From assembly GCA_963707025.1 (NCBI GenBank), contig CAVPOM010000004.1, positions 672,001 through 736,000 of the forward strand: 64,000 nt of DNA, given 5' to 3'. The position numbers were made by a program, and so were the translations under genes. The notes beneath the pieces were generated by a model. The model saw nothing but the letters and a program-made list of their open reading frames with translations. It was not told the DNA's origin and did no database searches. Position 1 is the first letter of the stretch; the number at the start of each line of letters is the position of its first letter. This stretch comes from an uncultured Verrucomicrobiae bacterium (GTDB taxonomy: Bacteria > Verrucomicrobiota > Verrucomicrobiia > Limisphaerales > Palsa-1400). Below are positions 1,833 to 62,142 of the stretch, in pieces.

Positions 1833-1886
1833 GGGGAGGCGCAATCCGCGCTGGACAAACAGCGCCGCGCCGCCCTATTTTCCGGC

Positions 1887-2471
1887 ATGGCCTTAACTGC
1901 TTCAACCATGCTGGCGCTGGGAACGGCGGCCCCGGATTTCCGGCTGCCCGACGTGAACGGAAAAATGGTGGCGCTGGCGGATTTTAACTCCGCCCCGGCC
2001 CTGGTGGTTCTGTTCATCTGCAATCACTGTCCCTACGTCAAACATATCCGCGCCGGGCTGGCCGAATTCGGCCGGGACGCGCAGAAGCGCGGCGCCGCCG
2101 TGGTCGCGATCAACGCCAACGACGCCGAAGAGTATGCGGAGGACAGCCCGGCAAAGATGAAGCAGGAAGCGCAGGCGGTGGGTTACCCGTTTGCCTACCT
2201 GTTTGACGAGTCCCAGGCGGTGGCCAAGGCCTACCGGGCGGCCTGCACGCCGGATATATTTCTGTTTGACAAAGATCGCAGGCTGGCTTACCGCGGCCAG
2301 TTTGATGACAGCCGCCCGGGCAAAAGCGCGCCGGTGACGGGCCGGGATTTGCGGGCCGCGCTGGAGGCGGTTTTGGCGGGAAAGCCCGGTCCGGCCATCC
2401 AGACCGCCAGCATCGGCTGCAACATCAAGTGGAAGCCCGGCAACGCGCCGGATTACGCCGGAGGAGTTTAG
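1887..2471 (+). CDS. Thioredoxin-family (AhpC/TSA, PRX-like1) protein
   Basis: APDFRLPD, FICNHCPYV, YRAACTPDIFLFD, YRGQFDDSRP, SIGCNIKWK. Confidence 0.9.
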   Translation: MALTASTMLALGTAAPDFRLPDVNGKMVALADFNSAPALVVLFICNHCPYVKHIRAGLAEFGRDAQKRGAAVVAINANDAEEYAEDSPAKMKQEAQAVGYPFAYLFDESQAVAKAYRAACTPDIFLFDKDRRLAYRGQFDDSRPGKSAPVTGRDLRAALEAVLAGKPGPAIQTASIGCNIKWKPGNAPDYAGGV

Positions 2472-2483
2472 GATTGTGATTGT

Positions 2484-2585
2484 AATGCGCCAGTCCTGGT
2501 TGGCAGGGTCCCGATTCATCGGGATCGAGCCGTAACTCGATTCCGTGGGATTTAGTCACGGCTCGAACAGAGTCTCGCCCTGCCG
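2484..2585. repeat. REP-like inverted repeat containing a TCCCGA-N4-TCGGGA hairpin
   Basis: ggcaggg..tcgagccg pairs with cggctcga..ccctgcc; 5' flank atgcgccagtcctggttgg resembles the reverse complement of the 3' flank of the 3548 element. Confidence 0.6.
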
Positions 2586-2623
2586 ATTGAGAATCGCGCA
2601 TTTCTGGCAGCGAAGATTTCCAC

Positions 2624-3613
2624 ATGCAAAATAGTTTTCTCGGAATCGAAATCGGCGGCACCAAATTGCAAATCGTGGCCGGCAATGAGGCGGGCGCAAT
2701 TGAGGAGCGATTTCGCTTTGCCATCAGGCCCGCCGGCGGCGCTGCCGGGATTCGCCGCCAAATGGAAGAAACGCTCCGCGATCTGGTCCCGCGCCTCAAA
2801 CCGTCCGCCATCGGGGTCGGTTTTGGCGGCCCGGTGGATTGGCGGACCGGAGTCATCTGCTGCTCGCATCACATTGAGGGATGGACGGATTTTCCGCTGG
2901 GGCCGAGGTTGTCCGGGCTGGCGGGCGCGCCGGTTTATGTGGACAATGATGCCAATGTGGCGGCGCTGGCAGAGGCGCGGCGCGGCGGGGGCCATGGATT
3001 TAATCCGGTTTTTTACGTGACGCTGGGCAGCGGAGTCGGGGGCGGCCTGGTGGTGGACGGAAGGATTTATCACGGGGCCAGGCCCGGCGAGGTGGAAATC
3101 GGGCATGTCCGCCTGGACCGGTCCGGCGTCATCCTGGAATCGCGCTGTTCGGGCTGGGCGGTGGATGGGAAAGTGCGGCGGGCCATGGCGGAGAATCCAT
3201 TGGGTTTGCTGGCCAGCCAGGCCGGTGGCGCCACGAGTGGGGAGGCAAGGTTCATCGCGCCGGCCCTGGCGGGAGGCGATGCGGCCGCGCGAAGGATTTT
3301 GGAGGAAACGGCGGGTGATCTGGGTTTTGGCCTGTCGCATGTGGTGCAGTTGCTTCATCCGGAGGTCATCGTGCTGGGCGGAGGATTATCGCTCATTGGC
3401 GAACCGCTGCGGGCGGCGGTGGAAAGAGCATTGCCGCCGTTCGTCATGCAGGCGTTTCGGCCCGGGCCCAGGATTGTGCTGGCCGGGCTTGGGGAGGATG
3501 CCGTGCCGGTGGGGGCGCTGGAATTGGCCAAGCAGTGCCATGAGCCTGTCATGGGTGGCAGGGCGGGTCCCGAATTATCGGGACCCGCCCTGCCTTTCCC
3601 GATCCAACCATGA
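2624..3613 (+). CDS. ROK family sugar kinase (glucokinase-like)
   Basis: GIEIGGTK, VDNDANVAALAE, VTLGSGVGGGLVVDG, GEVEIGH, VIVLGGG; last ~22 codons run through a palindromic repeat. Confidence 0.9.
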   Translation: MQNSFLGIEIGGTKLQIVAGNEAGAIEERFRFAIRPAGGAAGIRRQMEETLRDLVPRLKPSAIGVGFGGPVDWRTGVICCSHHIEGWTDFPLGPRLSGLAGAPVYVDNDANVAALAEARRGGGHGFNPVFYVTLGSGVGGGLVVDGRIYHGARPGEVEIGHVRLDRSGVILESRCSGWAVDGKVRRAMAENPLGLLASQAGGATSGEARFIAPALAGGDAAARRILEETAGDLGFGLSHVVQLLHPEVIVLGGGLSLIGEPLRAAVERALPPFVMQAFRPGPRIVLAGLGEDAVPVGALELAKQCHEPVMGGRAGPELSGPALPFPIQP

Positions 3614-3670: not shown

Positions 3671-4240
3671 ATGAATCCTTGGATTTGCGATTATATCAAG
3701 GCCCAAAAGGCGGCGCTGGATTCCATTCCCGCGCAGGCGGTGGAGGAATTGGTCAAACTGCTGCGTCAGGCGCTGCAGGAGGACCGCCAGATTTTTGTCT
3801 TTGGCAACGGTGGCAGCGCCGCCAACGCCTCCCATTTCGTCACCGATCTGGGCAAAGGCGCCTCCGACAAAGCGGGCAGACGCTTCCGCTGCCTGTCCCT
3901 CAACGACAACGTGAGCTGGATGACGGCGCTGGCCAACGATTACGCCTATGAGGACATCTTCGTCCGCCAGTTGGAGAATTACGGGCGCAAAGGCGACGTG
4001 GCCCTGGCCCTGAGCGTGAGCGGCAATTCCCCCAACGGGGTCAAGGCCCTGGCCTGGGCCAAAAAGGCCGGGCTGACCACCATCGCCCTGGTGGGCGGCA
4101 AACGGGGCGAGATGGCCCGGCTCGCCCAGCATGTCATTGTAATTGACTCCGTTCATTACGGGCGGGTGGAGGACGCCCAGATGGCGATTTGCCACATGCT
4201 TTGTTATGCCTTCATGGAACATCCCGAATGGGCGCAATAG
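3671..4240 (+). CDS. SIS-domain phosphosugar isomerase (GmhA/DiaA-like)
   Basis: FGNGGSAANASH, TALANDYAYEDIFVRQ, SVSGNSPN, VEDAQMAICH. Confidence 0.85.
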   Translation: MNPWICDYIKAQKAALDSIPAQAVEELVKLLRQALQEDRQIFVFGNGGSAANASHFVTDLGKGASDKAGRRFRCLSLNDNVSWMTALANDYAYEDIFVRQLENYGRKGDVALALSVSGNSPNGVKALAWAKKAGLTTIALVGGKRGEMARLAQHVIVIDSVHYGRVEDAQMAICHMLCYAFMEHPEWAQ

Positions 4241-4261
4241 CCTGAAGCGCGCGTCTGTGTT

Positions 4262-5794
4262 ATGCCCGCGACCGAGCAGATTCGCAAAAAGATCGGGAAT
4301 CTGCCGCACAAGCCCGGGGTTTATTTGATGAAGGACCGTTTCGGCACGGTCATTTATGTGGGCAAGGCGCGCGATTTGCGCAAGCGCGTCAGCACCTATT
4401 TTCACCCTTCCCGCCGCCTGGGCTGGGACTTGAAGTTCAACGCGCTGGTGGACGCGGTGCATGACCTGGACACCTACACGGTGGGCAGCGAACCGGAGGC
4501 GCTGCTCCTGGAGGGCAAGCTCATCAAGGAATACCAGCCGCGCTACAACATCAGCTTTCGCGACGACAAACGGTTTCTGCTCATCAAAATCAACTTGAAC
4601 GATCCCATCCCGCGCTTCATGCTGACACGCCTGCGCCAGGACGACGGGGCGCGTTACTTTGGCCCCTTCGCCCATTCGGCCTCGGCGCGCCACACCCTCA
4701 CCCTGGCCCGGCGCAAATTCAATTTGCGCGGCTGCCGCCCCCTCACCCCCGGGGAGGAGGACTACAAACATTGCCTCTACGGCCATCTCAAATACTGCAC
4801 CGCTCCCTGCATCGGCAATGTCAGCCGCGAGGATTACCGCCTCCAGGCCCGGGCAGCCTGCGATTTCCTGGACGGCCAAACCGGCGAAATGGAGCGCGAT
4901 TTGGAAGAGCAGATGAAAAAGGCCGCCGCGGCGGAGGATTTTGAGAAGGCGGCGCAATGGCGCGACGCCCTGGACGACCTGCGCCGCACGGTGGAAAAAA
5001 CCAAAAAATTTCCGCGCCTGCCATACAGCCTTCCCGTGGCCGTGGAGCCGCAGGCGGACCTGGCCGAGCTGGCCAAAGTTCTCGCCCTGCCGGCCAACCC
5101 GGCGCGCATCGAGGGTTTTGACATTTCCAACATCAGCGGCACCTTCGCCGTCGCTTCCATGGTGAGTTTTCGCAACGGCAGGCCCGACCGCTCCAATTAC
5201 CGCCGCTACCGCATTAAAACGGCGGCGGGCCAGGACGACTTTGCCTGCATGGCCGAAACGGTGCGGCGGCGCTACGCGCGGTTGCTGGCGGAAGGCGTGG
5301 CCAGGCCCGGCGGGGAGGGCGGAGGAGCGGCCCCCATCCTGCTGCCCGACTTAATTTTGATTGACGGCGGCAAGGGGCAGCTCAACGCGGCGGTGGCGGA
5401 ACTGACCGCGCTGGGTTTGGAGCGCATCCCCATCCTGGGCCTGGCCAAGGAATTTGAGGAAATCTTCCGGCCCGGGGAGACGGAGCCATTGCGGTTGAGC
5501 CATGATTGCGGCGCATTGAAATTATTGCAGCGGGTGCGGGACGAGTCCCATCGTTTTGCCAACACCTACAACGCGCAACTGCGGCTGAAGAGAATCTCCG
5601 AAAGCATTCTGGATGAGTTTCCCGGAATGGGCGGCCGGCGCAAGGCGGCACTTTTGAAAAAATTCGGTTCCGTGCAACGATTGCGGCTGGCCCGGGTGGA
5701 GCAGATCGCGGAGGTTTGCGGTTTTGGCGGAAAGACGGCGGAGGCCTTGAAGAAGTTTCTGGAGGCGCACTCGCCCTCCGGTGGGAAGGTCTGA
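4262..5794 (+). CDS. uvrC: Excinuclease ABC subunit C
   Basis: GIY-YIG region PGVYLMKD/IYVGKARDLRKRV, UVR motif EDFEKAAQWRD, RIEGFDISN, LILIDGGKGQL, RDESHRFA, C-terminal HhH. Confidence 0.95.
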   Translation: MPATEQIRKKIGNLPHKPGVYLMKDRFGTVIYVGKARDLRKRVSTYFHPSRRLGWDLKFNALVDAVHDLDTYTVGSEPEALLLEGKLIKEYQPRYNISFRDDKRFLLIKINLNDPIPRFMLTRLRQDDGARYFGPFAHSASARHTLTLARRKFNLRGCRPLTPGEEDYKHCLYGHLKYCTAPCIGNVSREDYRLQARAACDFLDGQTGEMERDLEEQMKKAAAAEDFEKAAQWRDALDDLRRTVEKTKKFPRLPYSLPVAVEPQADLAELAKVLALPANPARIEGFDISNISGTFAVASMVSFRNGRPDRSNYRRYRIKTAAGQDDFACMAETVRRRYARLLAEGVARPGGEGGGAAPILLPDLILIDGGKGQLNAAVAELTALGLERIPILGLAKEFEEIFRPGETEPLRLSHDCGALKLLQRVRDESHRFANTYNAQLRLKRISESILDEFPGMGGRRKAALLKKFGSVQRLRLARVEQIAEVCGFGGKTAEALKKFLEAHSPSGGKV

Positions 5795-5826
5795 CCGATC
5801 GGTCCTATCAGTCGGATCCGACTGAT
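5793..5826. repeat. Two adjacent perfect palindromes between convergent uvrC and secA stops
   Basis: gaccgatcggtc (5793-5804) and atcagtcggatccgactgat (5807-5826). Confidence 0.7.
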
Positions 5827-5863
5827 TCCGTTTTGTCAGGCGGTTCCATGACCTTCCCCGCCG

Positions 5864-8800
5864 CTATCCGTTTTTGCCGCAGCACTGTTTGTATTTCTTG
5901 CCGCTGCCACAGGTGCAGGGGTCGTTGCGGCCCACTTTGGGGCCGGTGCGGACGGGCCTGGCCTTCTGGGCCTTGGCCACAAACTCGGTTGCTTCGGGTC
6001 ACCATGTCGCTGGGATTCTTGCCGCCGGCGGAGGCGGTGGCGGTGGGGGACTCCGGCTGGCCGGTGCCAAAGGAACTGACCTCCAGGTGGGTTGTTTTGC
6101 GCGGGATGCGGTTCTGGAATTGGGTCAGGGCCAGCAGGCTGGAGGAACTGCGGAAGATGTTGTGGCAAATCTCGCTTTTGATGCTGGTCATCAACTCCTC
6201 GAACACCTTGAAGGCCTCGGCCTGGTATTCCACCAGCGGATCGCGCTGGCCGTAGGCGCGCAAGCCGACGCTTTCGCGCAAGCCGTCCATGCCGTAGAGA
6301 TGCTCCTGCCAGAGCTTGTCCACGGAAACCAGGATGGTGTAGCGCTCCACCGATTTGAGGGCGTCGGGATTTTCACAACTGACCTTCAATTCATAAATGT
6401 TGCGCACGGCCTTGCAGATAAACTGGCAGACGGCAAATTGGGCCGCGCTCAGGCCGGCAAAGGCCGACCCTTCCAGCGGCGCCTCGTGGCCGGATTTGGC
6501 GGCCTTGATGATTTCCTCTTCGGGCATGGTCAGGGGAAAATTGAGGTTGACCCAGTCGGCCAGGGGCCGGGGCGTCCACTCCTCCGGTTCGGCGTTGTCC
6601 AGGGTCAATTCCCGGACTTTGGAGATGACCACTTCCTCCATGATGTCCATCAGCCGGTCGCGCACGTCGTCGGCGTTGATCACTTCGTCGCGGAAGCCGT
6701 AAATGACCTCGCGCTGTTTGTTCATCACGTCGTCGTATTCCAAGGTGCGTTTGCGGCGCTGGAAGTTCTGCTGTTCGACCCGCTTCTGGGCGGACTGGAT
6801 GGATTTATCGAGCATGAAGTGCTCCAGTTCCTGGCCTTCCTCCAGCCCGACCCGCTCCATCATTTTGACCAGTTTGTCCGAGCCGCCGAACAGGCGCATC
6901 AGGTCGTCCTCCAGGGAGATGAAAAAGTGGGAGGAGCCCGGGTCGCCCTGGCGGGCGCAACGTCCGCGCAACTGGCGGTCAATGCGGCGGGATTCGTGGC
7001 GCTCGGTGCCGATGACGTGCAAGCCGCCCAGCCCTGCCACGGCCTCGCCCAGTTTGATGTCGGTGCCGCGCCCGGCCATGTTGGTGGCGATGGTGACCGA
7101 GCCGCGCTGGCCGGCGCGGGAGACAATCTCGGCTTCCTGCTGGTGATATTTGGCGTTGAGGACGGAATGGATGATGCCGGTTTTCTGCAACATTCTGGAG
7201 ACATGCTCGCTGGTTTCCACCGAGACGGTGCCGACCAGAATGGGGCGGCCCTGGTTGTGAATGGCGGTGATTTCCTTGAGGACGGCGTTGAATTTTTCGC
7301 GTTTGGTTTTATAGACCGAATCGTTGGCGTCCCGCCGCGCCACCGGGCGGTTGGTGGGGATGACCAGGACGCCCAGTTTGTAAATGTCCAGAAATTCGGA
7401 GGCCTCGGTCTCGGCGGTGCCGGTCATGCCGGCCAGCTTTTTGTAAAGCCGGAAATAATTTTGAATGGTGATGGTGGCCAGGGTCTGGGTCTCGCGCTCG
7501 ACCTCCACCCCCTCCTTGGCTTCGACCGCCTGGTGCAAGCCGTCGCTCCAGCGCCGGCCATACATGGGCCGCCCGGTGTGTTCGTCCACGATGACCACCT
7601 TGCCGTTTTCCACCACGTAATGCACGTCCAGTTGGTAAAGACTGTAGGCCTTGAGCAGTTGGGAAATGGTATGGATGTCGCCGGCCTTGGATTCGAACTC
7701 GGCCTGGACTTGCGCTTTTAATTCCAGCCGCCGGCGCGGGTCGGCTTCCGGGCCGGTGTCTATCTCATGAAATTTCACGGTCAAATCCGGCAGGACGAAC
7801 GCGTCCGGGTCCTGGGGCCGCATGAAAGCGCGCCCTTTTTCCGTCAGGTCGGCATCATGGCTCTTCTCGTCCATGGCGAAGAACAGTTCCTCCTTCTCGG
7901 CATAAAGGGCTTTCTTGGTTTGATCGGCATGCAACTCCAATTCGGCCTGGTTCATCAGCCGCTGGTTCTCCGGATTTTCCAGCACTTTGAGAAAATTGGG
8001 CGAGCGGGGGCACCCCGACTTGACGCGAAACAGCAGCAGGCCGATTCTGGCTTCCAGCTCCTGCGGGCGGGCCGGATTGGAGCCGTCGGCCGGGTGCAGT
8101 TTTTTCATCAAATCCTCCGCCTCGGCCAGGAAGCGGGCGCACAGCTTTTCCTGGGCGCGCTCGAGCGATTCGACCACCGGTTTGAACTGGTCGTATTTGT
8201 TGTCAATGGCCAGCACGGACGGGCCGCTGATGATCAGGGGCGTGCGCGCCTCGTCAATAAGAATGGAGTCCACTTCGTCCACAATGGCGAAATAATGCCC
8301 GCGCTGCACCTGTTCCTCCCGGCGCATGGCCATGCCGTTGTCGCGCAAGTAATCGAAGCCGAATTCGGAGTTGGTGCCGTAGGTGATGTCGCAATTGTAT
8401 TGCTCGCGCCGCACGGCGGGGGATTGGTCCCGGAGAATGCAGCCGACCGTCAGGCCCAAAAACCGGTAAACCGCGCCCATCCATTCGCTGTCGCGCGCCG
8501 CCAGATAATCGTTGACCGTGACGACATGCACGCCCAGGCCGGTCAGGGCGTTGAGATAGACCGGCATGGTGGCGACCAGGGTTTTGCCCTCGCCGGTGGC
8601 CATTTCCGCGATCTTGCCCTGGTGCAGGGCGATGGCGCCGACCAGTTGCACGTCGAACGGGATCATCTCCCATTTCAGCGGATGTTCCCGCACGATGATT
8701 TCCGTGCCGCAGAGGCGGCGGCAGGCATCTTTCACCACGGCGCAGGCTTCGGGCAAGATCTCATTCAGGCGCGCCGCCCTTTCCGCCGCGTCCTGGATGG

Positions 8801-12036: not shown

Positions 12037-13319
12037 GCGTCACTCCTTTTTCCGGCCAGGGCCGGTTGCAGGGCTTTGGCCGGCGGCGCGCCGCGGGCCG
12101 GGAGTGGCGGCGTCTGTTGCGCCCGCTTCCGGGCAAAGCCGGACAAGTGCATGAGGAATTGCACGATCAACCCCAGCGCCACCAGACTGCACGCCACATA
12201 GGGCGTGAGCGCGGCCGGATTGCGCACCACCTGCAAAATGGAAACGCGGTCACCCTCCTCAAAACTGGCCTGGTAAAACGTTTCCCCGCCATAGCGCAGC
12301 GGTGCGTTCATTCGGATCAGCACGTCCCGGTCCTCCCCGCGCGCCGGGTCGCGCAGGTGAATCTTGCTGGAAAAATTGCTCGGGATGTCGGTGCCGGCGT
12401 AAATGTCGTGTTTGAACTCCAACAAGGTGATCGTGTAAGGCTTGTAATAGCGCACCGGCCGCAGCGCCATTTCATACGTGCGCCCCGCCGCCTGGAATCT
12501 TTGCGGCTCGGTCAGCGGCTGGCGCAGCAGCCCGCCAAACTCCGCCTGCAATTCCTGCGCCAGCGGCGGCCGGGCCAGCCAAAAGGACACCGTCCAGTCG
12601 CCCAACGAACGGTTGCCGTCCACCACCTCGACCAGCGCGGTGGGCCGGTTTTCGTCGTCCATCCGTTTGGCCTCGGGGAGGGGCGCGAAGAGAAGCTGCC
12701 GGCCGATTCCCTGGCTGGCTTTGAGTTTTTCGCCGCCGCCGGACATCGGGCCGGCCGGGGTTGAGTTTTGAAAATAAGTCTTGACGCGCAAGGCGAAGGG
12801 CAGGCCGGGGGGATGCAGTTCCCCGCCCTGGGCCAGGAGCGCCTCCGGGATGGACACCACCCGGTCGCGTCCGGGATCGGTCACATCCGTCACCGCCAAT
12901 TCATGGCGGCGGCTGTCTTCGGTGTAATTGCCCGACCCGCCCACCGGCAGCCGCATCTGGCTTTCGATCTGAAATGTCTCCGTCAGGAATTGGCCGGCCA
13001 GCAGAATGATCAAGCCGGCGTGAACGAGCAGAATGCCGGTCTTCTTTTTGCTGAGTTGAAATCGTTTGATATGGGCCGCCAGCAAATTGAGCAGCAGCGC
13101 CAGGCCGATCGTCCAGCCTCCCGGAAAGACCGGGATCCGCAGGTGCGATCCCGCCGGCGTCCAATGCACAACAAAGCTGCGGAAAATCTGCGTCTGCGCG
13201 TCGTAAAGCCCCATGTGAACCTCTGCCAAAGTGCCGAAGAAAACCAGCAGGAGCGCCAGCGCCAGCAGGACCACGGTCAGGCGCAGCAACGTCAGGAAAT
13301 TCAGGCAGTTCTTCAGCAT
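12033..13319 (-). CDS. ResB/Ccs1-like cytochrome c biogenesis protein
   Basis: N-terminal TMs, LVHAGLIILLAGQ (conserved His), IRMNAPLRYGGETFYQAS, C-terminal TM; 4-bp overlap with ccsA. Confidence 0.85.
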   Translation of the reverse strand: MLKNCLNFLTLLRLTVVLLALALLLVFFGTLAEVHMGLYDAQTQIFRSFVVHWTPAGSHLRIPVFPGGWTIGLALLLNLLAAHIKRFQLSKKKTGILLVHAGLIILLAGQFLTETFQIESQMRLPVGGSGNYTEDSRRHELAVTDVTDPGRDRVVSIPEALLAQGGELHPPGLPFALRVKTYFQNSTPAGPMSGGGEKLKASQGIGRQLLFAPLPEAKRMDDENRPTALVEVVDGNRSLGDWTVSFWLARPPLAQELQAEFGGLLRQPLTEPQRFQAAGRTYEMALRPVRYYKPYTITLLEFKHDIYAGTDIPSNFSSKIHLRDPARGEDRDVLIRMNAPLRYGGETFYQASFEEGDRVSILQVVRNPAALTPYVACSLVALGLIVQFLMHLSGFARKRAQQTPPLPARGAPPAKALQPALAGKRSDA

Positions 13320-13322
13320 GGC

Positions 13323-14435
13323 TCAGGGGTAGCGGACGGTTTGGACGAATTGGGTGAAGGCATCTTTTTCACGGGCCACGACCGCGCCCGCCCCCATCAA
13401 TTTATAGAACCAGGTCTGGCCGGCGTGCGGCACGGTGACGGCCACCATCCGGCTGGGCTGGCCGCCGGCGTCTGTGCCGGTCAGATCCACCAGTGTGGCC
13501 TTTCCGCCCAGCACATCCAGGGATGCCGTGGCCTTCGCCAGCCCATCCTCCGCAATGTCCGGCAAATTCAACTGCCTGCGCCAGCGATTAACGTTGGCCA
13601 GCGTGCCGCCGCCTTCGCCGCCCAAAACGCTGATGCTGACAACGGCTTTCTGGCCCGCGTCGCCCGCGATGGAGAAGCTTTTCATCACCATGGCGCCGGG
13701 CGGGGTTTCCATCCAGTTCGCCGGGGTGTTCCATTTGGGTTGGTCGTTGGAATTGCCAGGGGCGGCCATGCCCATGCCCATGCCCATGCCCACGCCGGTC
13801 ATGCCCGCGTGCGGATCGGCCTTCGTCACGGCGGCATCGCTTCCGCCGAAATGGACCGATTTTAGAAACTCAAGAAAAACCGGTTTCGCTCCTGCCACCA
13901 CTTCCGCGTCTCCGCGCATTTTAAAAAACCACGAAGCGCCGTCGCGCGGAATCATCGCCACCACCGTCCGTTGCGAGGCGCCCGCCATCTCGTAAAGTTT
14001 TCCTTCGTTGGAATCCACCACCGTCTTTTCGGACACAATGTCTTTTTCCGTGATGTCGCCCAGGCCGACCTCCTGCCGCCAGCGGTTGACGTTGGCCAGC
14101 GTGCCTCCCACGTCGCCGGGAAAGGAGGTGATCGTCACCTCGGCCTTTTTGTCGCCGGGCCCCGGCACCACAAAATTGCCCAGGCGGATGCTGTTGGGCG
14201 GCATTTCCTTCCAGCCGGGCGGCGTGGTCCAATGGACGGCGGCGGAGTTGACGGGGACCGGCGGGGCATCCGCGCCCATCATGGACATGCCGGGGGTCCC
14301 CTGGTTCTGGGCCGCCGGGGCTGGCGCCGCCGGTTCCTTGGGGGCGTCATAACTTTTGATTTGATTGTCGCGCCGGCATCCCGCCAAAAGGCCGGTCACC
14401 AAGCACGCCGAAACAACTGCGCAAGATAATTTCAT
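13323..14435 (-). CDS. Lipoprotein with a duplicated domain, first gene of the ccs operon
   Basis: Lipobox LLAGC; two copies of W-x-x-P-x-x-W-x-E...GGTLANVNRWR...WF(F/Y)K; Met/Gly-rich linker DPHAGMTGVGMGMGMGM. Confidence 0.8.
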   Translation of the reverse strand: MKLSCAVVSACLVTGLLAGCRRDNQIKSYDAPKEPAAPAPAAQNQGTPGMSMMGADAPPVPVNSAAVHWTTPPGWKEMPPNSIRLGNFVVPGPGDKKAEVTITSFPGDVGGTLANVNRWRQEVGLGDITEKDIVSEKTVVDSNEGKLYEMAGASQRTVVAMIPRDGASWFFKMRGDAEVVAGAKPVFLEFLKSVHFGGSDAAVTKADPHAGMTGVGMGMGMGMAAPGNSNDQPKWNTPANWMETPPGAMVMKSFSIAGDAGQKAVVSISVLGGEGGGTLANVNRWRRQLNLPDIAEDGLAKATASLDVLGGKATLVDLTGTDAGGQPSRMVAVTVPHAGQTWFYKLMGAGAVVAREKDAFTQFVQTVRYP

Positions 14436-14672
14436 TTCGAGTGAACACAACATAGCACGCCCCGCGCCGGGCAAAAGACGTTTTTTTCGTTTCCCGTGGC
14501 ATCAACGTGGCACCCTTTGGGCTTCGCCGATCCTGGGCGGGGGCTTGCCAGACATCTGCGATTGGCGGAATCTCCTTGAATTTGTCGTGAAGGACTGCGA
14601 ACAATTGCAACCAAATTATGACAGCGCCGTGGCGCGAAGCGGCGACGAGTCGAACTGAATGGACGACAAATC

Positions 14673-16100
14673 ATGCTAACAAATCTCCAGCTCAAGAACT
14701 TCAAGATTTGGAGGGACACCAAGCCTTTTAAGATGGCCCCCTTGACGGTCCTGTTCGGCACGAACAGTTCGGGCAAAAGCAGTATCGAGCAATTTTTCTT
14801 GATGCTCAAACAGACGATGGAATCCTCCGACCGCAAGGTCGTAATTTATCCCGGGGACCGGGACTCGGCGGTAAACCTCGGCTCGTTCGAAGAACTCGTC
14901 TTCGCCCGCGATCCCAAGAACAAGCTCGAATTTAACTTTGAGTGGAGCTTGGCAAAACCCCTTACCATCAAAGACCCCCGCTCTGAATTCGCCTGCTCTG
15001 GAGACCACCTCCGCTTCTCCGCAGACGTAGGCATGGCAGGAGAAAAGCACCCTAAGCTCGCCGTGGGTCGGTTTGAGTATGAACTCAAGCAGGACGGCAG
15101 CGACGTGATGCGCGTGTGGGTCGTGCGCAAAGCCGGCGAAAAGATCGAATACAAACTTGACGCCTCACCTTATACCCTGATTCGCAATCAGATGCGGGCC
15201 TGGCCGCTCGGCGCCCCCACCAAGTTCTTCGGCTTCCCGGACGAAATTCCGGCCTACTATCAAAATGCCGACTTTGTGCAGGATTTCAGCCTCCAAATGG
15301 AGCAATTGCTTCGCTCCATCAGCTACCTGGGCCCGCTGCGATCCAAGGGCGAAAGGCTCTACTACTGGACCGGCGGCGAACCTGCAAGTGTCGGCTATTC
15401 CGGTGAGAATACGATTAGCGCCCTCCTCGCCGCTAAAGCACGCCAACTCAACACCGGAAGGAAAAAGAGAAGGAAGCCTTTCGAACAGTTTATCGCCGAG
15501 AAACTGCATCAGCTTGAACTGATTGATGAGTTCGAAGTAAAACAGATATCCGAGCATCGCAAAGAATACGAAGTGAAGGTCAAGACGCCAGGTTCCCCAT
15601 TCTGGGTGGACGTTCCTGATGTCGGCTTCGGCATTTCACAGGTCTTGCCCGTCTTGGTGCAGTGCTTCTACGCGCCCGCTGACTCGATTCTCTTCATCGA
15701 ACAACCGGAATTGCACCTCCATCCCAAAGCCCAATCGAACCTCGCGGACTTGTTCATCAATGTTCTATCTTCTCGGGTTGACGGCAGGCCGCGCAACATT
15801 CAACTCGTGATCGAGACACATTCCGAACATTTTCTTCACAGACTCCAGCGCCGTATCGCCGAAAACCACCCGGATCGTCTTATTACTCCCGACCAAGTCG
15901 CCGCTTATTTTGCTTACACCACTGGCGCCGACTCAAAGTTGGAGCCACTCCAGATTGACCTCCTTGGTAACGTCATTAATTGGCCGGAGAATTTCTTTGG
16001 CGACAGCATGGGCGATCTCACGGCCATGACCCAAGCGGCAGCCCTGCGCGAACAGGCGCGCACCATTCCAAATATCCAACCGAAGGCTGCCACAGAGTGA
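14673..16100 (+). CDS. ABC-type (AAA_15/AAA_21-like) ATPase with DUF3696-like C-terminus
   Basis: LKNFKIW, Walker A GTNSSGKS, YLGPLR, signature-like DVGFGISQVLP, Walker B LFIEQPELHLHP, H-loop IETHSEH, C-terminal GNVINWPENFFGD. Confidence 0.9.
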   Translation: MLTNLQLKNFKIWRDTKPFKMAPLTVLFGTNSSGKSSIEQFFLMLKQTMESSDRKVVIYPGDRDSAVNLGSFEELVFARDPKNKLEFNFEWSLAKPLTIKDPRSEFACSGDHLRFSADVGMAGEKHPKLAVGRFEYELKQDGSDVMRVWVVRKAGEKIEYKLDASPYTLIRNQMRAWPLGAPTKFFGFPDEIPAYYQNADFVQDFSLQMEQLLRSISYLGPLRSKGERLYYWTGGEPASVGYSGENTISALLAAKARQLNTGRKKRRKPFEQFIAEKLHQLELIDEFEVKQISEHRKEYEVKVKTPGSPFWVDVPDVGFGISQVLPVLVQCFYAPADSILFIEQPELHLHPKAQSNLADLFINVLSSRVDGRPRNIQLVIETHSEHFLHRLQRRIAENHPDRLITPDQVAAYFAYTTGADSKLEPLQIDLLGNVINWPENFFGDSMGDLTAMTQAAALREQARTIPNIQPKAATE

Positions 16101-16624
16101 GCGCCGTGGTGATTGATACGAACGTCCTGCTCGTAGCCGATGGTAAAGCCAACCAGATGTCGGCAGGTTGCCGCGCGGAATGTGCGCAACGCCTTGAAGC
16201 GGTCAAAAAAGGGGATCGCGTTGTCTTGGATCAGCAGTGGTTGATTTTGCGTGAGTATCAAAATAAACTCAGTCCGTCCGGCAAACCGCCAACGCCAGGG
16301 AACCTCTTTCTTAAATGGCTGATGACAGTCTGTCGCAATGAGCAACATGTCTCACAAGTTTCGATCACACCAACGAATCGGGATCAAACGAAGTTCGCGG
16401 AGTTTCCAGACGACGAGCCTCTTGAATTGGCATTCGATCCGGAGGATCGAAAGTTTGTTGCAGCCGCGCATGTGCATCCAGACAATCCACCAATTTTAGA
16501 AGCAGCCGATTGCAAATGGCTGGGTTGGGAAGCCAGTCTGAAACGACATGGCATACAACTGGAAGTTCTCTGCCGGTGCGAACTTGAATTAATTCGGAAA
16601 CGCAAAAAAGGTGCGGGAACATGA
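16097..16624 (+). CDS. PIN-domain putative ribonuclease
   Basis: GTG start overlapping ATPase stop (GTGA); VVIDTNVL, ILREYQ, FDPEDRKFVA, EAADCKW supply the PIN acidic tetrad. Confidence 0.75.
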   Translation: MSAVVIDTNVLLVADGKANQMSAGCRAECAQRLEAVKKGDRVVLDQQWLILREYQNKLSPSGKPPTPGNLFLKWLMTVCRNEQHVSQVSITPTNRDQTKFAEFPDDEPLELAFDPEDRKFVAAAHVHPDNPPILEAADCKWLGWEASLKRHGIQLEVLCRCELELIRKRKKGAGT

Positions 16625-17310
16625 CCGATGCCTTCCACAAGTTTCCCCACACGCCCCATCTGCTTTGGCTCGGTCTTGGATCGCCGCGTGACGACAAAAT
16701 TCTCAAGGCGGCAGAGGCCGCTGATTTCCTGTCCGCGGAAGTAATCGTCGAAGAGAAGGTGGACGGGGCAAATTTAGGTTTGTCTCTTGGCCCCGACGGC
16801 CGTGTGCGCGCCCAAAGTCGCGGCAATTATCTTGCCTCCGGCCGCAGTCATGCCCAATGGAATCCTCTCTGGCCGTGGCTTGCCGAACGACGTGATATTT
16901 TGGAAAATGGTCTGAGCAACGGCTTGGTAATTTTTGGTGAATGGTGCTATGCCCGGCACACTGTTCCTTACGACGCCCTGCCGGACTGGTTTCTCGGTTT
17001 CGATATTTTCGAAGTTGCTTCACGACGCTTCTGGTCGGTGGAGCGGCGGAATGAGTGGCTGCGACAGAAGGGCTTGGTTTCGGTCCCGGAAGTCAAACGA
17101 GGGCATTTATCCAGCAAGCGCCTGCCTTCCTTGCTGGGCAATTCCGCGGTTGGAAGCACGCCGATGGAGGGCATTTACTTGCGGCGCGATCAGGATGGCT
17201 GGCTCCAGGCACGGGCCAAGGTTGTCAGCACGGCCTTTCAGCAGCAAATTGAGGAACACTGGACACGTCGTACCGTGACCCCAAATCAACTGGCGCTGGT
17301 CCATGTTTGA
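16621..17310 (+). CDS. ATP-dependent RNA ligase family nucleotidyltransferase
   Basis: ATGA overlap with PIN stop; FPHTPHL, motif I EEKVDGAN, III FGEW, IIIa FLGFDI, IV EGIYLR, V RAKVV; no OB-fold domain. Confidence 0.85.
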   Translation: MTDAFHKFPHTPHLLWLGLGSPRDDKILKAAEAADFLSAEVIVEEKVDGANLGLSLGPDGRVRAQSRGNYLASGRSHAQWNPLWPWLAERRDILENGLSNGLVIFGEWCYARHTVPYDALPDWFLGFDIFEVASRRFWSVERRNEWLRQKGLVSVPEVKRGHLSSKRLPSLLGNSAVGSTPMEGIYLRRDQDGWLQARAKVVSTAFQQQIEEHWTRRTVTPNQLALVHV

Positions 17311-17342
17311 AAAACCGCCGATGCCGGGAGCACCTTCCAACC

Positions 17343-19585
17343 ATGAACTCTGACATCCCCGGTTGGCGCACGGACTTCGACAGGGAGTTTACCGCCGCGC
17401 GCCTGGCGCTGCTGCTGGGCGTGCTCATGCTCGTCTCCTATCCGGACATCGTCCTTGGCACGCACGCTTTCTTTTACCGCGATACCGGGCAATTCGGGTT
17501 CCCGGTCGCGTATTATTTGCGGGATTGCTTTTGGCGCGGCGAGGTTCCGCTGTGGAATCCTTACAATAATTGCGGCCTTCCCTTTCTCGCCCAGTGGAAC
17601 ACGCTGGCCCTTTATCCGCCGTCCTTGTTCTACGAGTTGCTGCCTATGCCCTGGGCGATGAACTTTTTCATTCTGGGCCATGTTTTTCTGGCGGGAATCG
17701 GGATGTACTTTCTGGCCTTGCGCTGGTTTGGCAATCGCCTGGCCGCCAGTTTCGCCGGCCTGATTTTCGCCTGGAACGGGCTGGCTCTGCATTGCTGGAT
17801 GTGGCCCTGCCACATTGCCGCCCTGGCCTGGATGCCGTGGGTGGTGCTGCTGGCCGAACGGGCCTGGAGCGGAGGCCAACGCCCTGTCGCCGGGGCGGCG
17901 CTGGCCGGCGCATGCCAGATGGTGACCGGCTCGCCGGAAATAATCATCTTTACATGGCTGATCGTGCTGGGAGTTTTCCTGCCTCGAGGTCTGGCGGCAA
18001 AAGCGTTTGTCCTGGGGCGGGGCGGGGCGGCTGGCCTCGGTGGTCGTGCTCGTCACGGCCCTGAGCGCGGCGCAACTTCTGCCCTGGCTGGATTTGCTGG
18101 CGCACGGCGACCGCACCACGGCTGTCGGCGACAACACCTGGGCGATGCCGGTGTGGGGCGCGGCCAATTTTCTCGTCCCGCTTTTCCGCATGACCTCATC
18201 GCTCAGCGGCGTCTGGATGCAACCGGGCCAGGAATGGACAACGTCTTATTACGCGGGCATCCTCACGCTGCTGCTGGCGTTGCTGGCGGTGGCGAAGGTG
18301 CGCAACGCGCGGACCGCCTTGCTGGGCCTGCTGGCTTTGGGGGGCGTGCTTTGTGCCATGGGCGATTCCGGCCTGCTCCTTAAAATTTTGAAAACGCTCG
18401 CGCCCGCTTTGGGTTTGACCCGTTTCCCGATCAAATTTGTCGTGGTCACGATTTTTTGTTTGCCGCTGCTGGCGGCCGCGGGAATGGTCTGGCTGCAGAG
18501 CGGCGCGGCGTGGCGCGCGCGCCGCAGCTTGCTGGTCATCGGCGGAGCGCTCGCCGTCGCGGTGGCGGCTCTGGCCTTTGGCGTTCCCTATGCCGAGGAC
18601 TCGCGCCGCGTGGTTGGGGCCAATGGCGCCGTGCGCCTGCTGATTCTCGCGGCGGGACTGGCCGCCATGCTTTTTCAGCCGCGCCTTCCGCGCAAGGCGG
18701 GACAGCTCGCAGTCTCTTTCGCGTTTTTATTTTTGTCCGGCCTGGACATCTGCACCCATGTCCCGCGCCAGAACCCAACCGTTCCCGTCCGGGACTACGG
18801 GGCCCTGACTCCGCCCATGACCGCCGTGCCGCGCCTGGGAGAATCGCGCGCCATGCCGGGCCGGGCAGGCCCAGGACCTGCTGCTCAGGCTGGTCAATCC
18901 GGACTTGGAGACCCATTATTTGGGACAGCGCTCCATGCTCTTCAGCGATTGCAATCTGCTGGATAAAATTCCGAAAGTGAACGGCTTTTTTTCCATTCAT
19001 CCGCGGGAAGAAGCCGCCGTGGCCCGGCTGCTCTATGGCTCGAACTCGTTGCCCCGATTGGAGGAATTCCTCGGCGTGTCGCAACTGGGCGTCGCCCAAA
19101 TTTCCCCGCTCAAGCTGGCTTGGGAGCCGCGCACCAATTTCATGCCCTGGGCCACCCTCGGCCAGCAGCCGCTTTTCCTGGATGACGACGCCACCCTGGC
19201 CGCGATGAGCCGGCCCGATTTCGCGCCGCGCGCCGTGGTTTATTTGCCCTCCGATGCGCGCGAAAAGGTTTCCGCCAGGGCCGATCCGCGGGCGCGCCTG
19301 GTGTCAAGCACGATCACGGCGGAGAAATGCGCCTTTCAGACGCAGGCGGCGACCGCCACCATGCTGGTGATGGCGCAGGGCTGGTATCATTGCTGGCAAG
19401 CCTCGGTGGATGGGAGCGGCGTTCCGTTATGGCGGGCCAACGGCGGATTTCAGGCTGTTGAAGTCCCCGCCGGCAATCATCAAGTTCTGTTTGAGTACAA
19501 AGACCGCGCCTTCCAACTCGGCTGCGCAATTTCCGTCGTGGCCTTGTTAGGTTGCGCAGTCCTGTTTTTTGCAAAGAACAAGTAA
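17343..19585 (+). CDS. YfhO-like polytopic membrane protein (putative GT-C glycosyltransferase), two apparent +1 frameshifts
   Basis: [23 protein letters not shown], many TMs, C-terminal [12 protein letters not shown]...[18 protein letters not shown]; frames join on removing one base at ~17982 and one at ~18864. Confidence 0.8.
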
Positions 19586-60185: not shown

Positions 60186-60325
60186 GGCGTCAAGAGGTTG
60201 ATTCAAACATTTTAAAGGATTGAATGGACGCCATCTTAATCCAAGGCCGCCGGTCGCGCCAATGGAAAAGGCAAGTATTGAATGGACAATACCGGGGGTC
60301 TATTTCAATCTTAGCAAGATTGACG

Positions 60326-61456
60326 ATGCACCTGCTCGAAACGTTAAACCTCAAAGGCTTTCGCTCCATCAAGGAATTGGAGAACTTCACGCTGGGGCCC
60401 ATCACCGTGCTCATCGGAGCGAATGGATCCGGAAAATCGAACCTCATCGGATTTTTCCGAATGATGAGCTACGTCATGCAGGGCGGCCTCCAGAGATTCC
60501 TGCAAGACGGCGGCGGAGCATCAAATTTTCTTCATTTCGGCCCGGCGCGCACGCGCTCTCTCGAGGCGAATCTGACTTTTCGCAGTGGTGCGGGCCTGAA
60601 CACAAAGCGGAACACCTACAGGTCTGAACTAACTTTCGCGGCCGTTGATCGCCTCATATTCTTTCACGAAGAGGTGCAATCTGAGCTCGCTGGCTCGGAT
60701 AATCCCGAAACGATCCTGTTCGAGAACATTGAGCCTTCAGAAAGCACTCTGAGCCGCGAAATCAAGTTGGACCCGCTACGGGCCGACACATTCATCCGCC
60801 AGTTCCTGAACAAAGTTCGTGCCTTCCATTTTCACGATACAAGCCTGACGTTGCGCATGCGGAATTACTGCGACGAGACTGATGCGCCGTATCTGCGCGC
60901 CGAAGGCGGCAATCTAGCGGCCGTGCTGTTGCGGCTGCTCAAGGAGTTTCCTGCGAATTATCGGCGCGTTGTCGCCGGAGTGAACACGGTTTTTCCAGAG
61001 TTGAAAGACTTCCAACTCGATCCCCCAGGCGGCAACGGCAAGGGCCTGTTGTTACGCTGGCGGCCGACGAGCAATCCGACTGAGATTTTTGGGCGGGCTC
61101 ACCTTTCCGACGGTACGCTACGCATGATTGCTCTCGTTACCCTCTTCAATTTGCCGGAGGCGATGTCGCCGTGGATGATTATCCTTGATGAGCCGGAACT
61201 TGGCTTGCATCCGGCCGCCGAGGCCTACCTTGCTTCGCTTATCCGCGCCGCCTCAGCGCAAACGCAGGTGCTGCTCAGCACACAGTCAGCGACGCTCGTT
61301 GATCACTTCAAACCATCTGAGGTCGTTGTGACTGAGATGCATGAAGGCGCTTCGACATTCAGTCGTCTCGAAGACGAAAAGCTCAGCCAGTGGTTGAAGC
61401 GATATACACTCGGGGAGGCCTGGCGAAAGAACGTCTTTGGGGGTCGCCCGGAATGA
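60326..61456 (+). CDS. ABC-type (AAA_21-like) ATPase
   Basis: KGFRSI, Walker A GANGSGKS, GGNLAAVL, signature LSDGTLR, Walker B ILDEPELGLHP, STQS, YTLGEAWRKN. Confidence 0.9.
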   Translation: MHLLETLNLKGFRSIKELENFTLGPITVLIGANGSGKSNLIGFFRMMSYVMQGGLQRFLQDGGGASNFLHFGPARTRSLEANLTFRSGAGLNTKRNTYRSELTFAAVDRLIFFHEEVQSELAGSDNPETILFENIEPSESTLSREIKLDPLRADTFIRQFLNKVRAFHFHDTSLTLRMRNYCDETDAPYLRAEGGNLAAVLLRLLKEFPANYRRVVAGVNTVFPELKDFQLDPPGGNGKGLLLRWRPTSNPTEIFGRAHLSDGTLRMIALVTLFNLPEAMSPWMIILDEPELGLHPAAEAYLASLIRAASAQTQVLLSTQSATLVDHFKPSEVVVTEMHEGASTFSRLEDEKLSQWLKRYTLGEAWRKNVFGGRPE

Positions 61457-62142
61457 ACCTGTTCCTCTACGTTGAAGGACAGGAGGAAGAGATGTTTGTG
61501 AATCGCGTGTTGCGCGGTCACTTGCTTCCGTTTGGTGTCATGGTTCAAAAACCCATTCTGGCTGCGACAAGTTTTCGCATAGGTGGCGACGAGGACGCGG
61601 ACATCACGGTTGGCGGTGTGACGAACTACGATTCGATCCGCGAAGACATCCTTAACCAATTTGCCACCGGCGACATTAACGCCGCCGATGTGCTTACGAC
61701 CCTGATTGATCTTTATGGGCTGCCGGCGCTCTTCCCCGGTTATGAGGAAGCGAGGATGAGCGGCCTGACCGCGGGCAGAAAGGCCGAACACATCGAACAG
61801 GCATGGAAATCGGACATCGGTCACCCGAATTTTTTCCCCTACATCCAGGTGCATGAGTTCGAGGCTCTCATTCTCACGCGCCCGTCGGTGCTCAAAGAGT
61901 TTTATCCTGAGCACTCTGCCGGCATCGAGCAACTCCGCAATGAATGTGCGGCATTTCGCACACCCGAGGACATCAATGAGGAAAAAGCGACGTTGCCTTC
62001 GCACCGCATCCTTGCCCGCGTCCCGGCGTACCAGAAGGTGGACGGGTTCCGACATCTCCAAGATATTGGATTGCAGGAACTAAAGGCGCACTGCCCGCGA
62101 TTCAAGGCGTGGATGGAGCAATGCGAGAAATTCGTCCGCTAA
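61453..62142 (+). CDS. DUF4276-like (TOPRIM-like) protein
   Basis: ATGA overlap with ATPase; LYVEGQEEE, TTLIDLYGLP, PYIQVHEFEALIL, PEDIN, PSHRI, CPRFKAW. Confidence 0.8.
   Translation: MNLFLYVEGQEEEMFVNRVLRGHLLPFGVMVQKPILAATSFRIGGDEDADITVGGVTNYDSIREDILNQFATGDINAADVLTTLIDLYGLPALFPGYEEARMSGLTAGRKAEHIEQAWKSDIGHPNFFPYIQVHEFEALILTRPSVLKEFYPEHSAGIEQLRNECAAFRTPEDINEEKATLPSHRILARVPAYQKVDGFRHLQDIGLQELKAHCPRFKAWMEQCEKFVR

Follow-up and report, generated by a model that had tools for sequence, protein, structure and literature searches.

An RNA ligase gene follows the HEC-03-type ATPase-PIN pair in an uncultured Verrucomicrobiae bacterium and in most sampled relatives of the pair

The stretch of DNA analyzed here (hereafter the window) comprises 64,000 nucleotides of contig CAVPOM010000004.1, from the genome assembly of an uncultured Verrucomicrobiae bacterium. 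Within it, three consecutive genes on one strand encode a predicted ATP-binding cassette (ABC) ATPase, a PIN-domain nuclease and an ATP-dependent RNA ligase (Table 1). On the basis of sequence comparison, this trio is a three-gene form of HEC-03, an anti-phage system that has been catalogued as two genes. The three reading frames are tightly packed: the GTG start of the PIN gene lies within the stop of the ATPase gene in a 4-nt overlap (GTGA, 16097-16100), and the ATG of the ligase gene lies within the PIN stop (ATGA, 16621-16624), an arrangement that implies co-translation. In 500-nt windows, the G+C content is 0.51-0.57 over positions 14500-17000, compared to 0.60-0.67 on both sides. An initial annotation, prepared from the letters of the window alone, had described both the stop/start overlaps and the more A/T-rich composition, and each is confirmed by the open reading frames (ORFs) and the sequence. 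The motifs that it named were likewise found in the translations, including GTNSSGKS in the ATPase, DTN in the PIN protein, and KVDG, FGEW, FDI, EG and RAK in the ligase.

Table 1. Positions of the trio and of the other features discussed, in the window and in related loci.
Sequence	Feature	Position	Strand	Basis
Window	Variable segment: trio plus 178 nt of upstream non-coding DNA	14495..17339	+	blastn/tblastn against same-genus genomes, G+C dip
Window	ABC-type ATPase with C-terminal DUF3696 tail, HEC-03-type ATPase, 475 aa	14673..16100	+	PADLOC, Pfam
Window	VapC-type PIN nuclease (predicted), HEC-03-type PIN, 175 aa, GTG start	16097..16624	+	PADLOC, fold, conserved residues
Window	Minimal ATP-dependent RNA ligase (predicted), 229 aa, ATG start	16621..17310	+	PF09414, fold, motifs
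L011	In-frame deletion remnant	6526-8690
L004	ATPase split in two ORFs	1833-3259
L070	ATPase split in two ORFs	6040-7508
L047	99-aa ORF	4202-4498
L049	99-aa ORF	4759-5055
L050	99-aa ORF	4196-4492
L059	99-aa ORF	5784-6080
L080	99-aa ORF	5772-6068
L105	HEC-03 pair followed by HNH endonuclease (plasmid CP119217.1)	6001-8658
Window	YfhO-like gene in three overlapping frames (17307-18383, 18007-18966, 18905-19585)	17307-19585	+
Window	HEC-01-type ATPase and DUF4276 pair	60224-62142	+	PADLOC

Sequence models assign the first two genes to the HEC-03 pair as defined in PADLOC. The ATPase matches model PDLC04148 (HEC-03B) with an E-value of 3e-116, residues 1-460 aligning to positions 1-451 of 458, and the PIN protein matches PDLC04147 (HEC-03A) at E 8e-29, with residues 4-159 on positions 3-151 of 159. 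The two sources name the proteins in opposite ways, since the text of the preprint describing HEC-03 calls the ATPase HEC-03A and the PIN protein HEC-03B. In Pfam, the ATPase is recognized by AAA_15 (E 1e-22), AAA_21 (E 7e-21) and, at its C-terminus, DUF3696 (E 4e-9), and it also matches NsnB of the Menshen system (PADLOC E 6e-59). Across 49 sequences the Walker A residues G29, N31, S32, G34, K35 and S37 are invariant, as are E343, E346 and H383, and the same holds for the EQPE...H segment.

The PIN protein falls below the Pfam threshold for PIN_3 (E 0.039; 15 bits versus a cut-off of 27), and NCBIfam added nothing specific for the trio. Its AlphaFold2 (AF2) model, with a predicted local distance difference test (pLDDT) score of 96.6, contains no extra domain. 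Foldseek returned only weak matches to PIN proteins for this model (best E 6e-3), and an exhaustive structural search placed VapC toxins on top, with 5sv2_A reaching a Z-score of 9.4 over 127 aligned residues at a root-mean-square deviation of 3.7. Twelve of the 13 top rows of this search are PIN-domain proteins, namely VapC toxins and archaeal PINs, and the exception is a chain from a Cas9 complex. All 42 aligned sequences, which are 25-87% identical to the window PIN, share the residues D7, N9, D45, E53, D114, D117 and D138 without exception. A further 64 PINs from metagenomes keep the acidic residues, apart from one E-to-Q change and gaps at contig ends. The window protein shares with the toxins of VapBC systems both the fold (Z 9.4 to VapC21 of M. 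tuberculosis) and the acidic active-site set. VapBC systems include a VapB antitoxin, whereas no small VapB-like ORF was found upstream of the window PIN, where the ATPase gene is located; control by an ABC ATPase would take its place, a difference also noted in the HEC-03 preprint (10.1101/2024.01.29.577857).

With its third, overlapping gene the trio departs from the two-gene composition of HEC-03. The encoded protein matches Pfam RNA_ligase (PF09414) at E 2e-32 and consists of the nucleotidyltransferase domain only. All 47 aligned sequences have the same residues in motif I (K46-x-D48-G49) and in motifs III-V (G106-E107-W108, E183-G184 and R198-x-K200). Using the AF2 model (pLDDT 88.6), Foldseek ranked the Naegleria ligase NgrRnl (6vt0, E 2e-8) first, followed by T. 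brucei REL1, Pab1020 and T4 Rnl2, and among its 53 matches at E<=1e-3 RNA ligases outrank DNA ligases. A profile comparison with solved structures returned Pab1020 alone, at a marginal E-value of 0.017. The family is large, with 2549 matches at E<=1e-3 among 3165 candidates, the best 120 of which are 68-100% identical. Its fold, motifs and PF09414 domain are those of the Rnl2, Rnl5 and Rnl3 ligases. Rnl2, Rnl5 and REL1 carry additional N- or C-terminal domains for nick recognition, whereas the window ligase is devoid of these and has a conserved N-terminal stretch. Taken together, these matches are far beyond chance and support the view of the initial annotation that the three genes, encoding an ABC ATPase, a PIN protein that looks active and a putative ATP-dependent RNA ligase, constitute an operon of the defence type.

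The linkage between the ligase and the pair was followed from both ends of the operon. A scan of genomes with the ligase alignment gave at least 600 matching stretches, and 541 of those listed encode relatives; the best 80 loci were kept and sorted with hidden Markov models built from our own alignments. ATPase, PIN and ligase genes occur in this order and on the same strand in 66 of these 80 ligase-anchored loci. In two others the trio is interrupted or split (L029, L037), and in another two the PIN and ligase genes are present and the contig ends before the ATPase (L001, L072). One locus has lost its PIN gene, the first residues of which are fused to the ligase (L011), and one retains ATPase and PIN remnants around an inserted WD40 gene (L023). 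The ligase is found behind a different pair, PDC-M07A/B, in three loci (L002, L005, L007; PADLOC E 5e-166 and 1e-45 for the pair in L002), has no such pair nearby in three (L020, L040, L079), and lies at a contig edge in two (L008, L054). Among the pairless ligases, that of L020 is located between an M78-peptidase protein and a DruE-like helicase, and that of L040 beside a TacA antitoxin. Going by their record titles, these loci come from Verrucomicrobiota, Planctomycetota, Myxococcota, Acidobacteriota, Nitrospirota, Chlorobiota, Pseudomonadota and other phyla; the Pseudomonadota include Vibrio and Endozoicomonas isolates, and some labels of metagenome-assembled genomes look unreliable.

A few of these loci have peculiarities of their own (Table 1). 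In L011, the first nine residues of the ligase ORF are the N-terminus of the PIN protein, and this remnant of an in-frame deletion directly follows the ATPase gene. In L004 and L070, a frameshift or sequencing error divides the ATPase gene, so that what appears to be an upstream neighbour is the N-terminal part of the ATPase (HEC-03B E 1e-28 and 7e-31). Five trios possess a 99-aa ORF that has no Pfam or PADLOC match and shares 4 nt with the start of the ATPase gene; it may represent a fourth gene in one sub-branch.

Starting from the ATPase, 401 genomes were sampled from the phylum to which the window belongs, and seven of them, the window's own genome included, match HEC-03B at E<=1e-115. The PIN gene is present in all seven and the ligase gene in six; at the seventh locus (L086) the pair is followed by a housekeeping-type RNA methyltransferase and there is no ligase. 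Among 400 genomes of the class to which a trio-bearing Vibrio belongs, 11 match at E<=1e-40. Five of these have the ligase (one being the genome chosen as the centre of the sample), three have none, two lie on contigs that are too short, and one encodes a different, fused ATPase. The three ligase-less ATPases are the best sampled fits to the PADLOC model (E 4e-215, 1e-167 and 2e-161), and one of these pairs sits between an SNF2 helicase and a type III-like methyltransferase, like the original embedded HEC-03.

Plasmids provide a further set, with 25 records containing a match to the ATPase. All eight matches at 44% identity or more (from Azotobacter, six Aeromonas and Rhodococcus records) are accompanied by the ligase, which lies about 0.5 kb downstream in seven of the eight and is partial and 2.2 kb away in the remaining one. 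Two plasmid records are annotated with a DUF3696 protein, a hypothetical protein and an 'RNA ligase family protein', and an Aeromonas trio resides on a conjugative plasmid beside an AbiEii toxin gene, Hok/Gef and a recombinase. On the Acinetobacter soli plasmid CP119217.1 (L105), an HNH endonuclease gene replaces the ligase gene behind a HEC-03 pair with a frameshifted ATPase, and genes for a helicase and an N6 methylase are located upstream of the pair. Two sibling A. soli plasmids also match the ATPase, and an HNH gene in third place was seen only on plasmids of this species.

In metagenomes, the best 80 ATPase-anchored loci were collected. The ligase is present in 54 of these and absent from 13 that have at least 1000 nt of downstream DNA; the 13 others, with under 1000 nt, are too short, which leaves 54 of 67 judged loci with the ligase. 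The ligase-less loci have an intact PIN gene in 11 cases and a PIN remnant in two; they share no recurrent third gene, and HNH was found in none of their 17 ORFs downstream of PIN. The ligase is a conserved third gene after the ATPase-PIN pair, and conservation beside the pair in other genomes, on which the initial annotation had staked its reading, is borne out in both the ligase-anchored and the metagenomic loci. Two-gene forms also exist in nature (L086, L117-L119 and the 11 intact metagenomic loci). Since such forms occur and the tested HEC-03 is itself composed of two genes, the ligase is dispensable for the core.

The trio is also mobile. Within the genus it constitutes a clean 2.85-kb presence/absence polymorphism, as seen in the same-genus genomes G806-G810 (loci L164-L168). 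G808 and G807 have an empty site at which the two flanking genes abut: window positions 14303-14494 and 17340-17700 are 93% identical to G808, where only about 49 nt separate the two stretches. G806 and G810 contain diverged alleles at the same site, with ATPases 88% and 76% identical to that of the window; G810 also shows the PIN gene (57%), and both contigs end before the ligase. The window trio is a recent indel, and alignment of the joints of the inserted block revealed no direct repeats and no target-site duplication. The full trio was found on three small viral contigs as well. Among 71 loci from which immediate neighbours were extracted, 30 have a neighbour of a PADLOC defence family (E<=1e-10); 11 of these 30 lie inside BREX, with PglX upstream and BrxHI or PglZ downstream, and six beside a type IIG/DrmMI-like methyltransferase. 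The defence-island setting raised in the initial annotation applies to these relatives, while family scans of the flanks place the window copy outside any such island.

The evolutionary relationship between the two- and three-gene forms was examined in a tree of 88 ATPases, built in the quick mode of IQ-TREE with an uncertain root and with support from the Shimodaira-Hasegawa-like approximate likelihood ratio test (SH-aLRT) only. The HEC-03-type clade contains 82 rows (support 95) and is split into groups of 23 and 59, with ligase-bearing loci on both sides. The three ligase-less gammaproteobacterial ATPases form one clade (SH-aLRT 98) within the larger half, inside the ligase-bearing family, and L086 appears as a single nested loss of the ligase. 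The two-gene form known from the catalogues seems to be an offshoot of a family in which three genes prevail, and not the reverse, in a picture that is biased because most rows stem from ligase-anchored searches. The ATPase tree ignores taxonomy, and the window ATPase is nearest to two Planctomycetota sequences.

Across 75 trios (the window and 74 loci), pairwise identities of the ATPase and PIN proteins are strongly correlated (Spearman 0.80), compared to 0.30 for ligase and ATPase and 0.34 for ligase and PIN. The ligase is the most conserved of the three, with a mean pairwise identity of 0.52 (ATPase, 0.44; PIN protein, 0.37). The window trio is itself a mosaic: between the window and L048, the ATPase is 74% and the PIN protein 63% identical, and the ligase just 47%. 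The window ligase is 72-85% identical to those of L001-L007, where the partner proteins are 90% identical, about 50% identical or members of the PDC-M07 family. The ligase has therefore been exchanged among ATPase-nuclease pairs, and it looks like a loosely coupled module. The idea that the ligase tracks host taxonomy more closely than its partners found no support: in trees of the same 55 loci, the phylum label changes 27 times in both the ligase and the ATPase tree and 29 times in the PIN tree, compared to about 37 changes for shuffled labels (PIN and ATPase trees only).

Weak co-variation with both partners is one argument for regarding the ligase as an independent RNA-repair or defence-island gene that travels with ABC-ATPase pairs and guards host RNA from the ribotoxins of phages, plasmids or competitors, without being tied to this PIN protein in particular. 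Its occurrence behind two families of pairs, HEC-03 and PDC-M07, points in the same direction, as do the three of 80 loci where it stands alone in defence islands or beside the TacA antitoxin and the 30 of 71 loci with defence genes as immediate neighbours. However, in 66 of the 80 ligase-anchored and 54 of the 67 judged metagenomic loci the ligase gene occupies a fixed same-strand place right after PIN, mostly abutting or overlapping it. Within the genus, the three genes are gained or lost together, and the copies embedded in BREX between PglX and BrxHI or PglZ come with the pair. We consider it unlikely that the ligase acts on its own.

The same correlations bear on whether the ligase could be a protein antitoxin that binds and blocks the PIN protein or the ATPase, its enzymatic activity being secondary. 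PIN toxins normally have a bound antitoxin and the locus has no VapB-like gene, so a translationally coupled protein might fill this place. Yet ligase-PIN co-variation is far below that of ATPase and PIN (0.34 versus 0.80), and such weak co-variation suits a bound inhibitor less well than an enzyme working on a shared substrate. In addition, the catalytic lysine and motifs III-V of the ligase are invariant in all 47 sequences, and ligase-less forms keep an active-looking PIN protein, the acidic residues being retained in the 15 full-length proteins of 17 checked. A binding antitoxin appears quite improbable in the face of these observations. A complex prediction for ATPase, PIN and ligase (ligase score 0.01, mark 0.32) is not evidence either way.

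Both the parts of this operon and the idea behind it have precedents. HEC-03 was described as an ABC ATPase and a VapC-like PIN protein embedded in Hma systems (Payne et al. 2024 preprint, 10.1101/2024.01.29.577857). As reported there, it lowers phage plaquing in E. coli, requires both genes and is toxic upon induction, and the word 'ligase' does not occur in the main text (10.1101/2024.01.29.577857). The window contains the same adjacent, co-oriented ATPase and PIN families, but HEC-03 was defined and tested as two genes, whereas the window and most of its relatives add the ligase. Independently of HEC-03, Matelska et al. 2017 (PMC5499597) describe operons in which a PIN_3-type PIN is combined with an ATPase, an HNH nuclease and an 'ATP-grasp' RNA ligase, and state, citing Burroughs and Aravind (NAR 2016 44:8525), that the ligase "would neutralize" the nucleases. 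As relayed by PMC5499597, this conflict system has the components and the logic of the window trio, with ligase and ATPase in one operon in both. Its definition is second-hand here and includes an HNH nuclease, whereas no HNH gene was found between or beside the trio genes among the window ORFs and in family scans. Its PIN proteins are assigned to the PIN_3/COG1569 group, and that of the window is a sub-threshold PIN_3 match with a VapC-like fold.

The literature searched contained no link between the validated HEC-03 and the predicted ligase-ATPase-PIN operons, and searches under other wordings yielded no further description of the trio. Nevertheless, with HEC-03 and the Burroughs-Aravind prediction both in print, the claim of the initial annotation that this is a novel, unrecognized triad fails. 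The pair is the validated HEC-03, operons of ligase, ATPase, PIN and HNH were predicted in 2016/2017, and the triad is largely catalogued already. The PADLOC comparison that had been suggested as a check of novelty matched the ATPase and PIN proteins to HEC-03 models, and no PADLOC model matched the ligase. The role that the initial annotation proposed for the ligase, self-immunity or reversibility, matches the published proposal.

Several characterized systems resemble the trio in part. In Menshen (NsnABC), the related ATPase NsnB ends in the same DUF3696 tail as the window ATPase, and this tail is predicted to clamp the PIN-like domain of NsnC (PMC12065111). Menshen also has a ParB/DUF262 protein, NsnA, whereas the window flanks lack an NsnA-like gene; and the NsnC PIN domain is described there as inactive and fused to a C-terminal nuclease, unlike the window PIN, which keeps its catalytic acids and has no extra domain. 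In PrrC/RloC, opposed by Pnk and Rnl1 of phage T4, and in PARIS (AriAB), an ABC-type ATPase controls a translation-targeting RNase and ligation is the counter-move (PMC2610378, PMC12409363). There the phage owns the ligase, whereas the window operon would encode both the cutter and the joiner in the host. The nuclease families differ as well, a PIN domain in the window versus the nuclease domain of PrrC/RloC and Toprim.

The PADLOC candidate PDC-M07 likewise consists of an ABC ATPase and a protein of about 180 aa, followed in L002, L005 and L007 by a ligase 72-79% identical to that of the window; L002 and L007 are flanked by BREX PglX and BrxHI. Its ATPase belongs to a different family (26-36 bits to the window ATPase), and the HEC-03 PIN alignment showed no profile similarity to the small PDC-M07 protein (probability 0.15). 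For this small protein, the ESM Atlas offered one weak lead, a rank-22 cluster (score 0.91) in which 10% of the members are PIN_4.

We propose that the ABC ATPase senses infection or relays the signal and that it holds and controls the PIN protein, the presumed effector RNase, probably via its C-terminal DUF3696 tail, in analogy to Menshen, Septu and PARIS. A phage cue might then allow the PIN protein to act in the manner of a VapC toxin and cleave tRNA, rRNA or another essential RNA; homology to HEC-03 and the conserved residues suggest this step. Cleavage would stop translation and, with it, phage growth. PIN nucleases depend on metal ions, and the ends that they generally produce are 5'-phosphate and 3'-OH. 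An ATP-dependent RNA ligase seals ends of exactly this kind without the help of a kinase or phosphatase, and the locus encodes neither Pnk nor Hen1 among its ORFs and annotated flanks, as the initial annotation had observed. The co-translated ligase would most likely reseal PIN cuts in host RNA, which could buffer leaky nuclease activity and let cells recover after the threat has passed. It would thereby function as an enzymatic 'antitoxin' that acts on the damage and not on the nuclease. Resealing is favoured by the fit between PIN products and ligase substrates together with the lack of a healing enzyme in the locus, by the intact catalytic sites of both enzymes, by a two-gene core that works alone and is toxic, and by the weak co-variation of the ligase with its partners; the published proposal follows the same logic. 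We give this role of the ligase an even chance.

A number of points weigh against resealing. The literature searched held no experiment on the ligase, and the two-gene HEC-03 works without it, so that another role is possible (10.1101/2024.01.29.577857). The ligase without a pair and the ligase behind PDC-M07, each in three of the 80 loci, indicate that its link to PIN cleavage is not exclusive. The 5'-phosphate/3'-OH end chemistry is assumed for the window PIN, and the ligase lacks the nick-recognition domains of Rnl2, Rnl5 and REL1. Moreover, a ligase that simply undid the work of the effector would seem to blunt the defence.

Alternatively, the ligase could be a co-effector: the PIN protein would cut, perhaps at two places or followed by trimming, and the ligase would rejoin shortened or wrong ends, or circularize fragments, and so produce sealed aberrant RNA that is proof against phage repair. 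The strong conservation of catalytic residues in both the PIN protein and the ligase and the co-translation implied by the overlapping genes are compatible with such a partnership. Distant homologues of the ligase (24-35% identical) are present in 14 phage records, mostly of jumbo phages judging by name or record length, and in large viral contigs; jumbo-phage ligases have been interpreted, in a comparative paper, as repairing RNA cuts inflicted by the host (PMC7824862). A host would gain from lesions that phage enzymes cannot repair, and RloC, which excises the wobble base, sets a precedent for repair-proofing (PMC7824862). On the other hand, two-gene forms defend without a ligase, the ligase-PIN co-variation of 0.34 is unlike that of a tuned two-enzyme machine, and there is no evidence of double cutting. 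We judge a co-effector role to be improbable.

Two further observations concern the viral ligases. Six large viral contigs contain two ligase copies, often about 4 kb apart, and viral contigs L132, L146, L147, L150, L152 and L155 (32-480 kb) carry distant homologues of the compact ligase.

In a bolder version, the operon could be a cut-and-rejoin machine in which the PIN protein excises a nucleotide or a small fragment from a key RNA, for example from the anticodon loop of a tRNA, and the ligase seals the gap into an end-free lesion that phage ligases, among them the distant jumbo-phage homologues, cannot mend; or the ligase could make an abortive defence reversible. This idea is improbable. 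If true, the reversible variant would be the first case shown by experiment in which a defence system can 'undo' its own RNA damage by a built-in step.

The reaction of ligases proceeds through AMP-lysine and AppRNA intermediates. With this established chemistry in a protein that is a bare nucleotidyltransferase domain, the ligase might also produce a signal or mark that activates or tunes the ATPase-PIN complex, for instance by transferring AMP or by 5'-adenylylating the ends of RNA or DNA. No precedent for this was found in the literature searched, and two-gene forms work without the ligase; a signalling role seems very improbable.

The trio is a real, well-conserved and mobile operon of the defence type, of which the parts and the underlying idea are already known. 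HEC-03 is catalogued as two genes, yet about four-fifths of the sampled relatives carry a catalytically intact-looking RNA ligase, so that a conserved component escapes annotation tools. The presence of both an RNA cutter and an RNA joiner in one host operon raises the question of whether abortive RNA cleavage is buffered or reversed by the cell's own repair enzyme. Resealing by the ligase has been in print as an idea since 2016/2017, and no test of it was found in the literature searched. Sister loci with and without the ligase, the ligase behind another ATPase pair, and the empty site within the genus offer natural controls, and with these the trio turns a ten-year-old prediction into a clean experiment.

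The surroundings of the trio consist of unrelated genes. On the left are CcsB-type cytochrome c biogenesis genes and an unannotated 383-aa gene, and on the right is a YfhO-like membrane gene. The latter is spread over three overlapping frames, indicating a frameshifted gene or an assembly error, and only the last of these, at the C-terminus, has a match to Pfam YfhO, which at E 1e-6 falls just short of the cut-off. An Rfam scan of positions 13000-19000 returned nothing apart from one sub-threshold match to a CRISPR repeat (E 0.53). Over positions 14300-17600, a promoter scan gave 0 sites, and nine terminator-like sites were found versus 4.7 expected, none of them informatively placed. Finally, a second ABC-ATPase defence pair is located near the far end of the window, where a 410-aa ATPase matches PADLOC HEC-01A (E 9e-114) and an overlapping 250-aa DUF4276 protein matches HEC-01B (E 8e-59).

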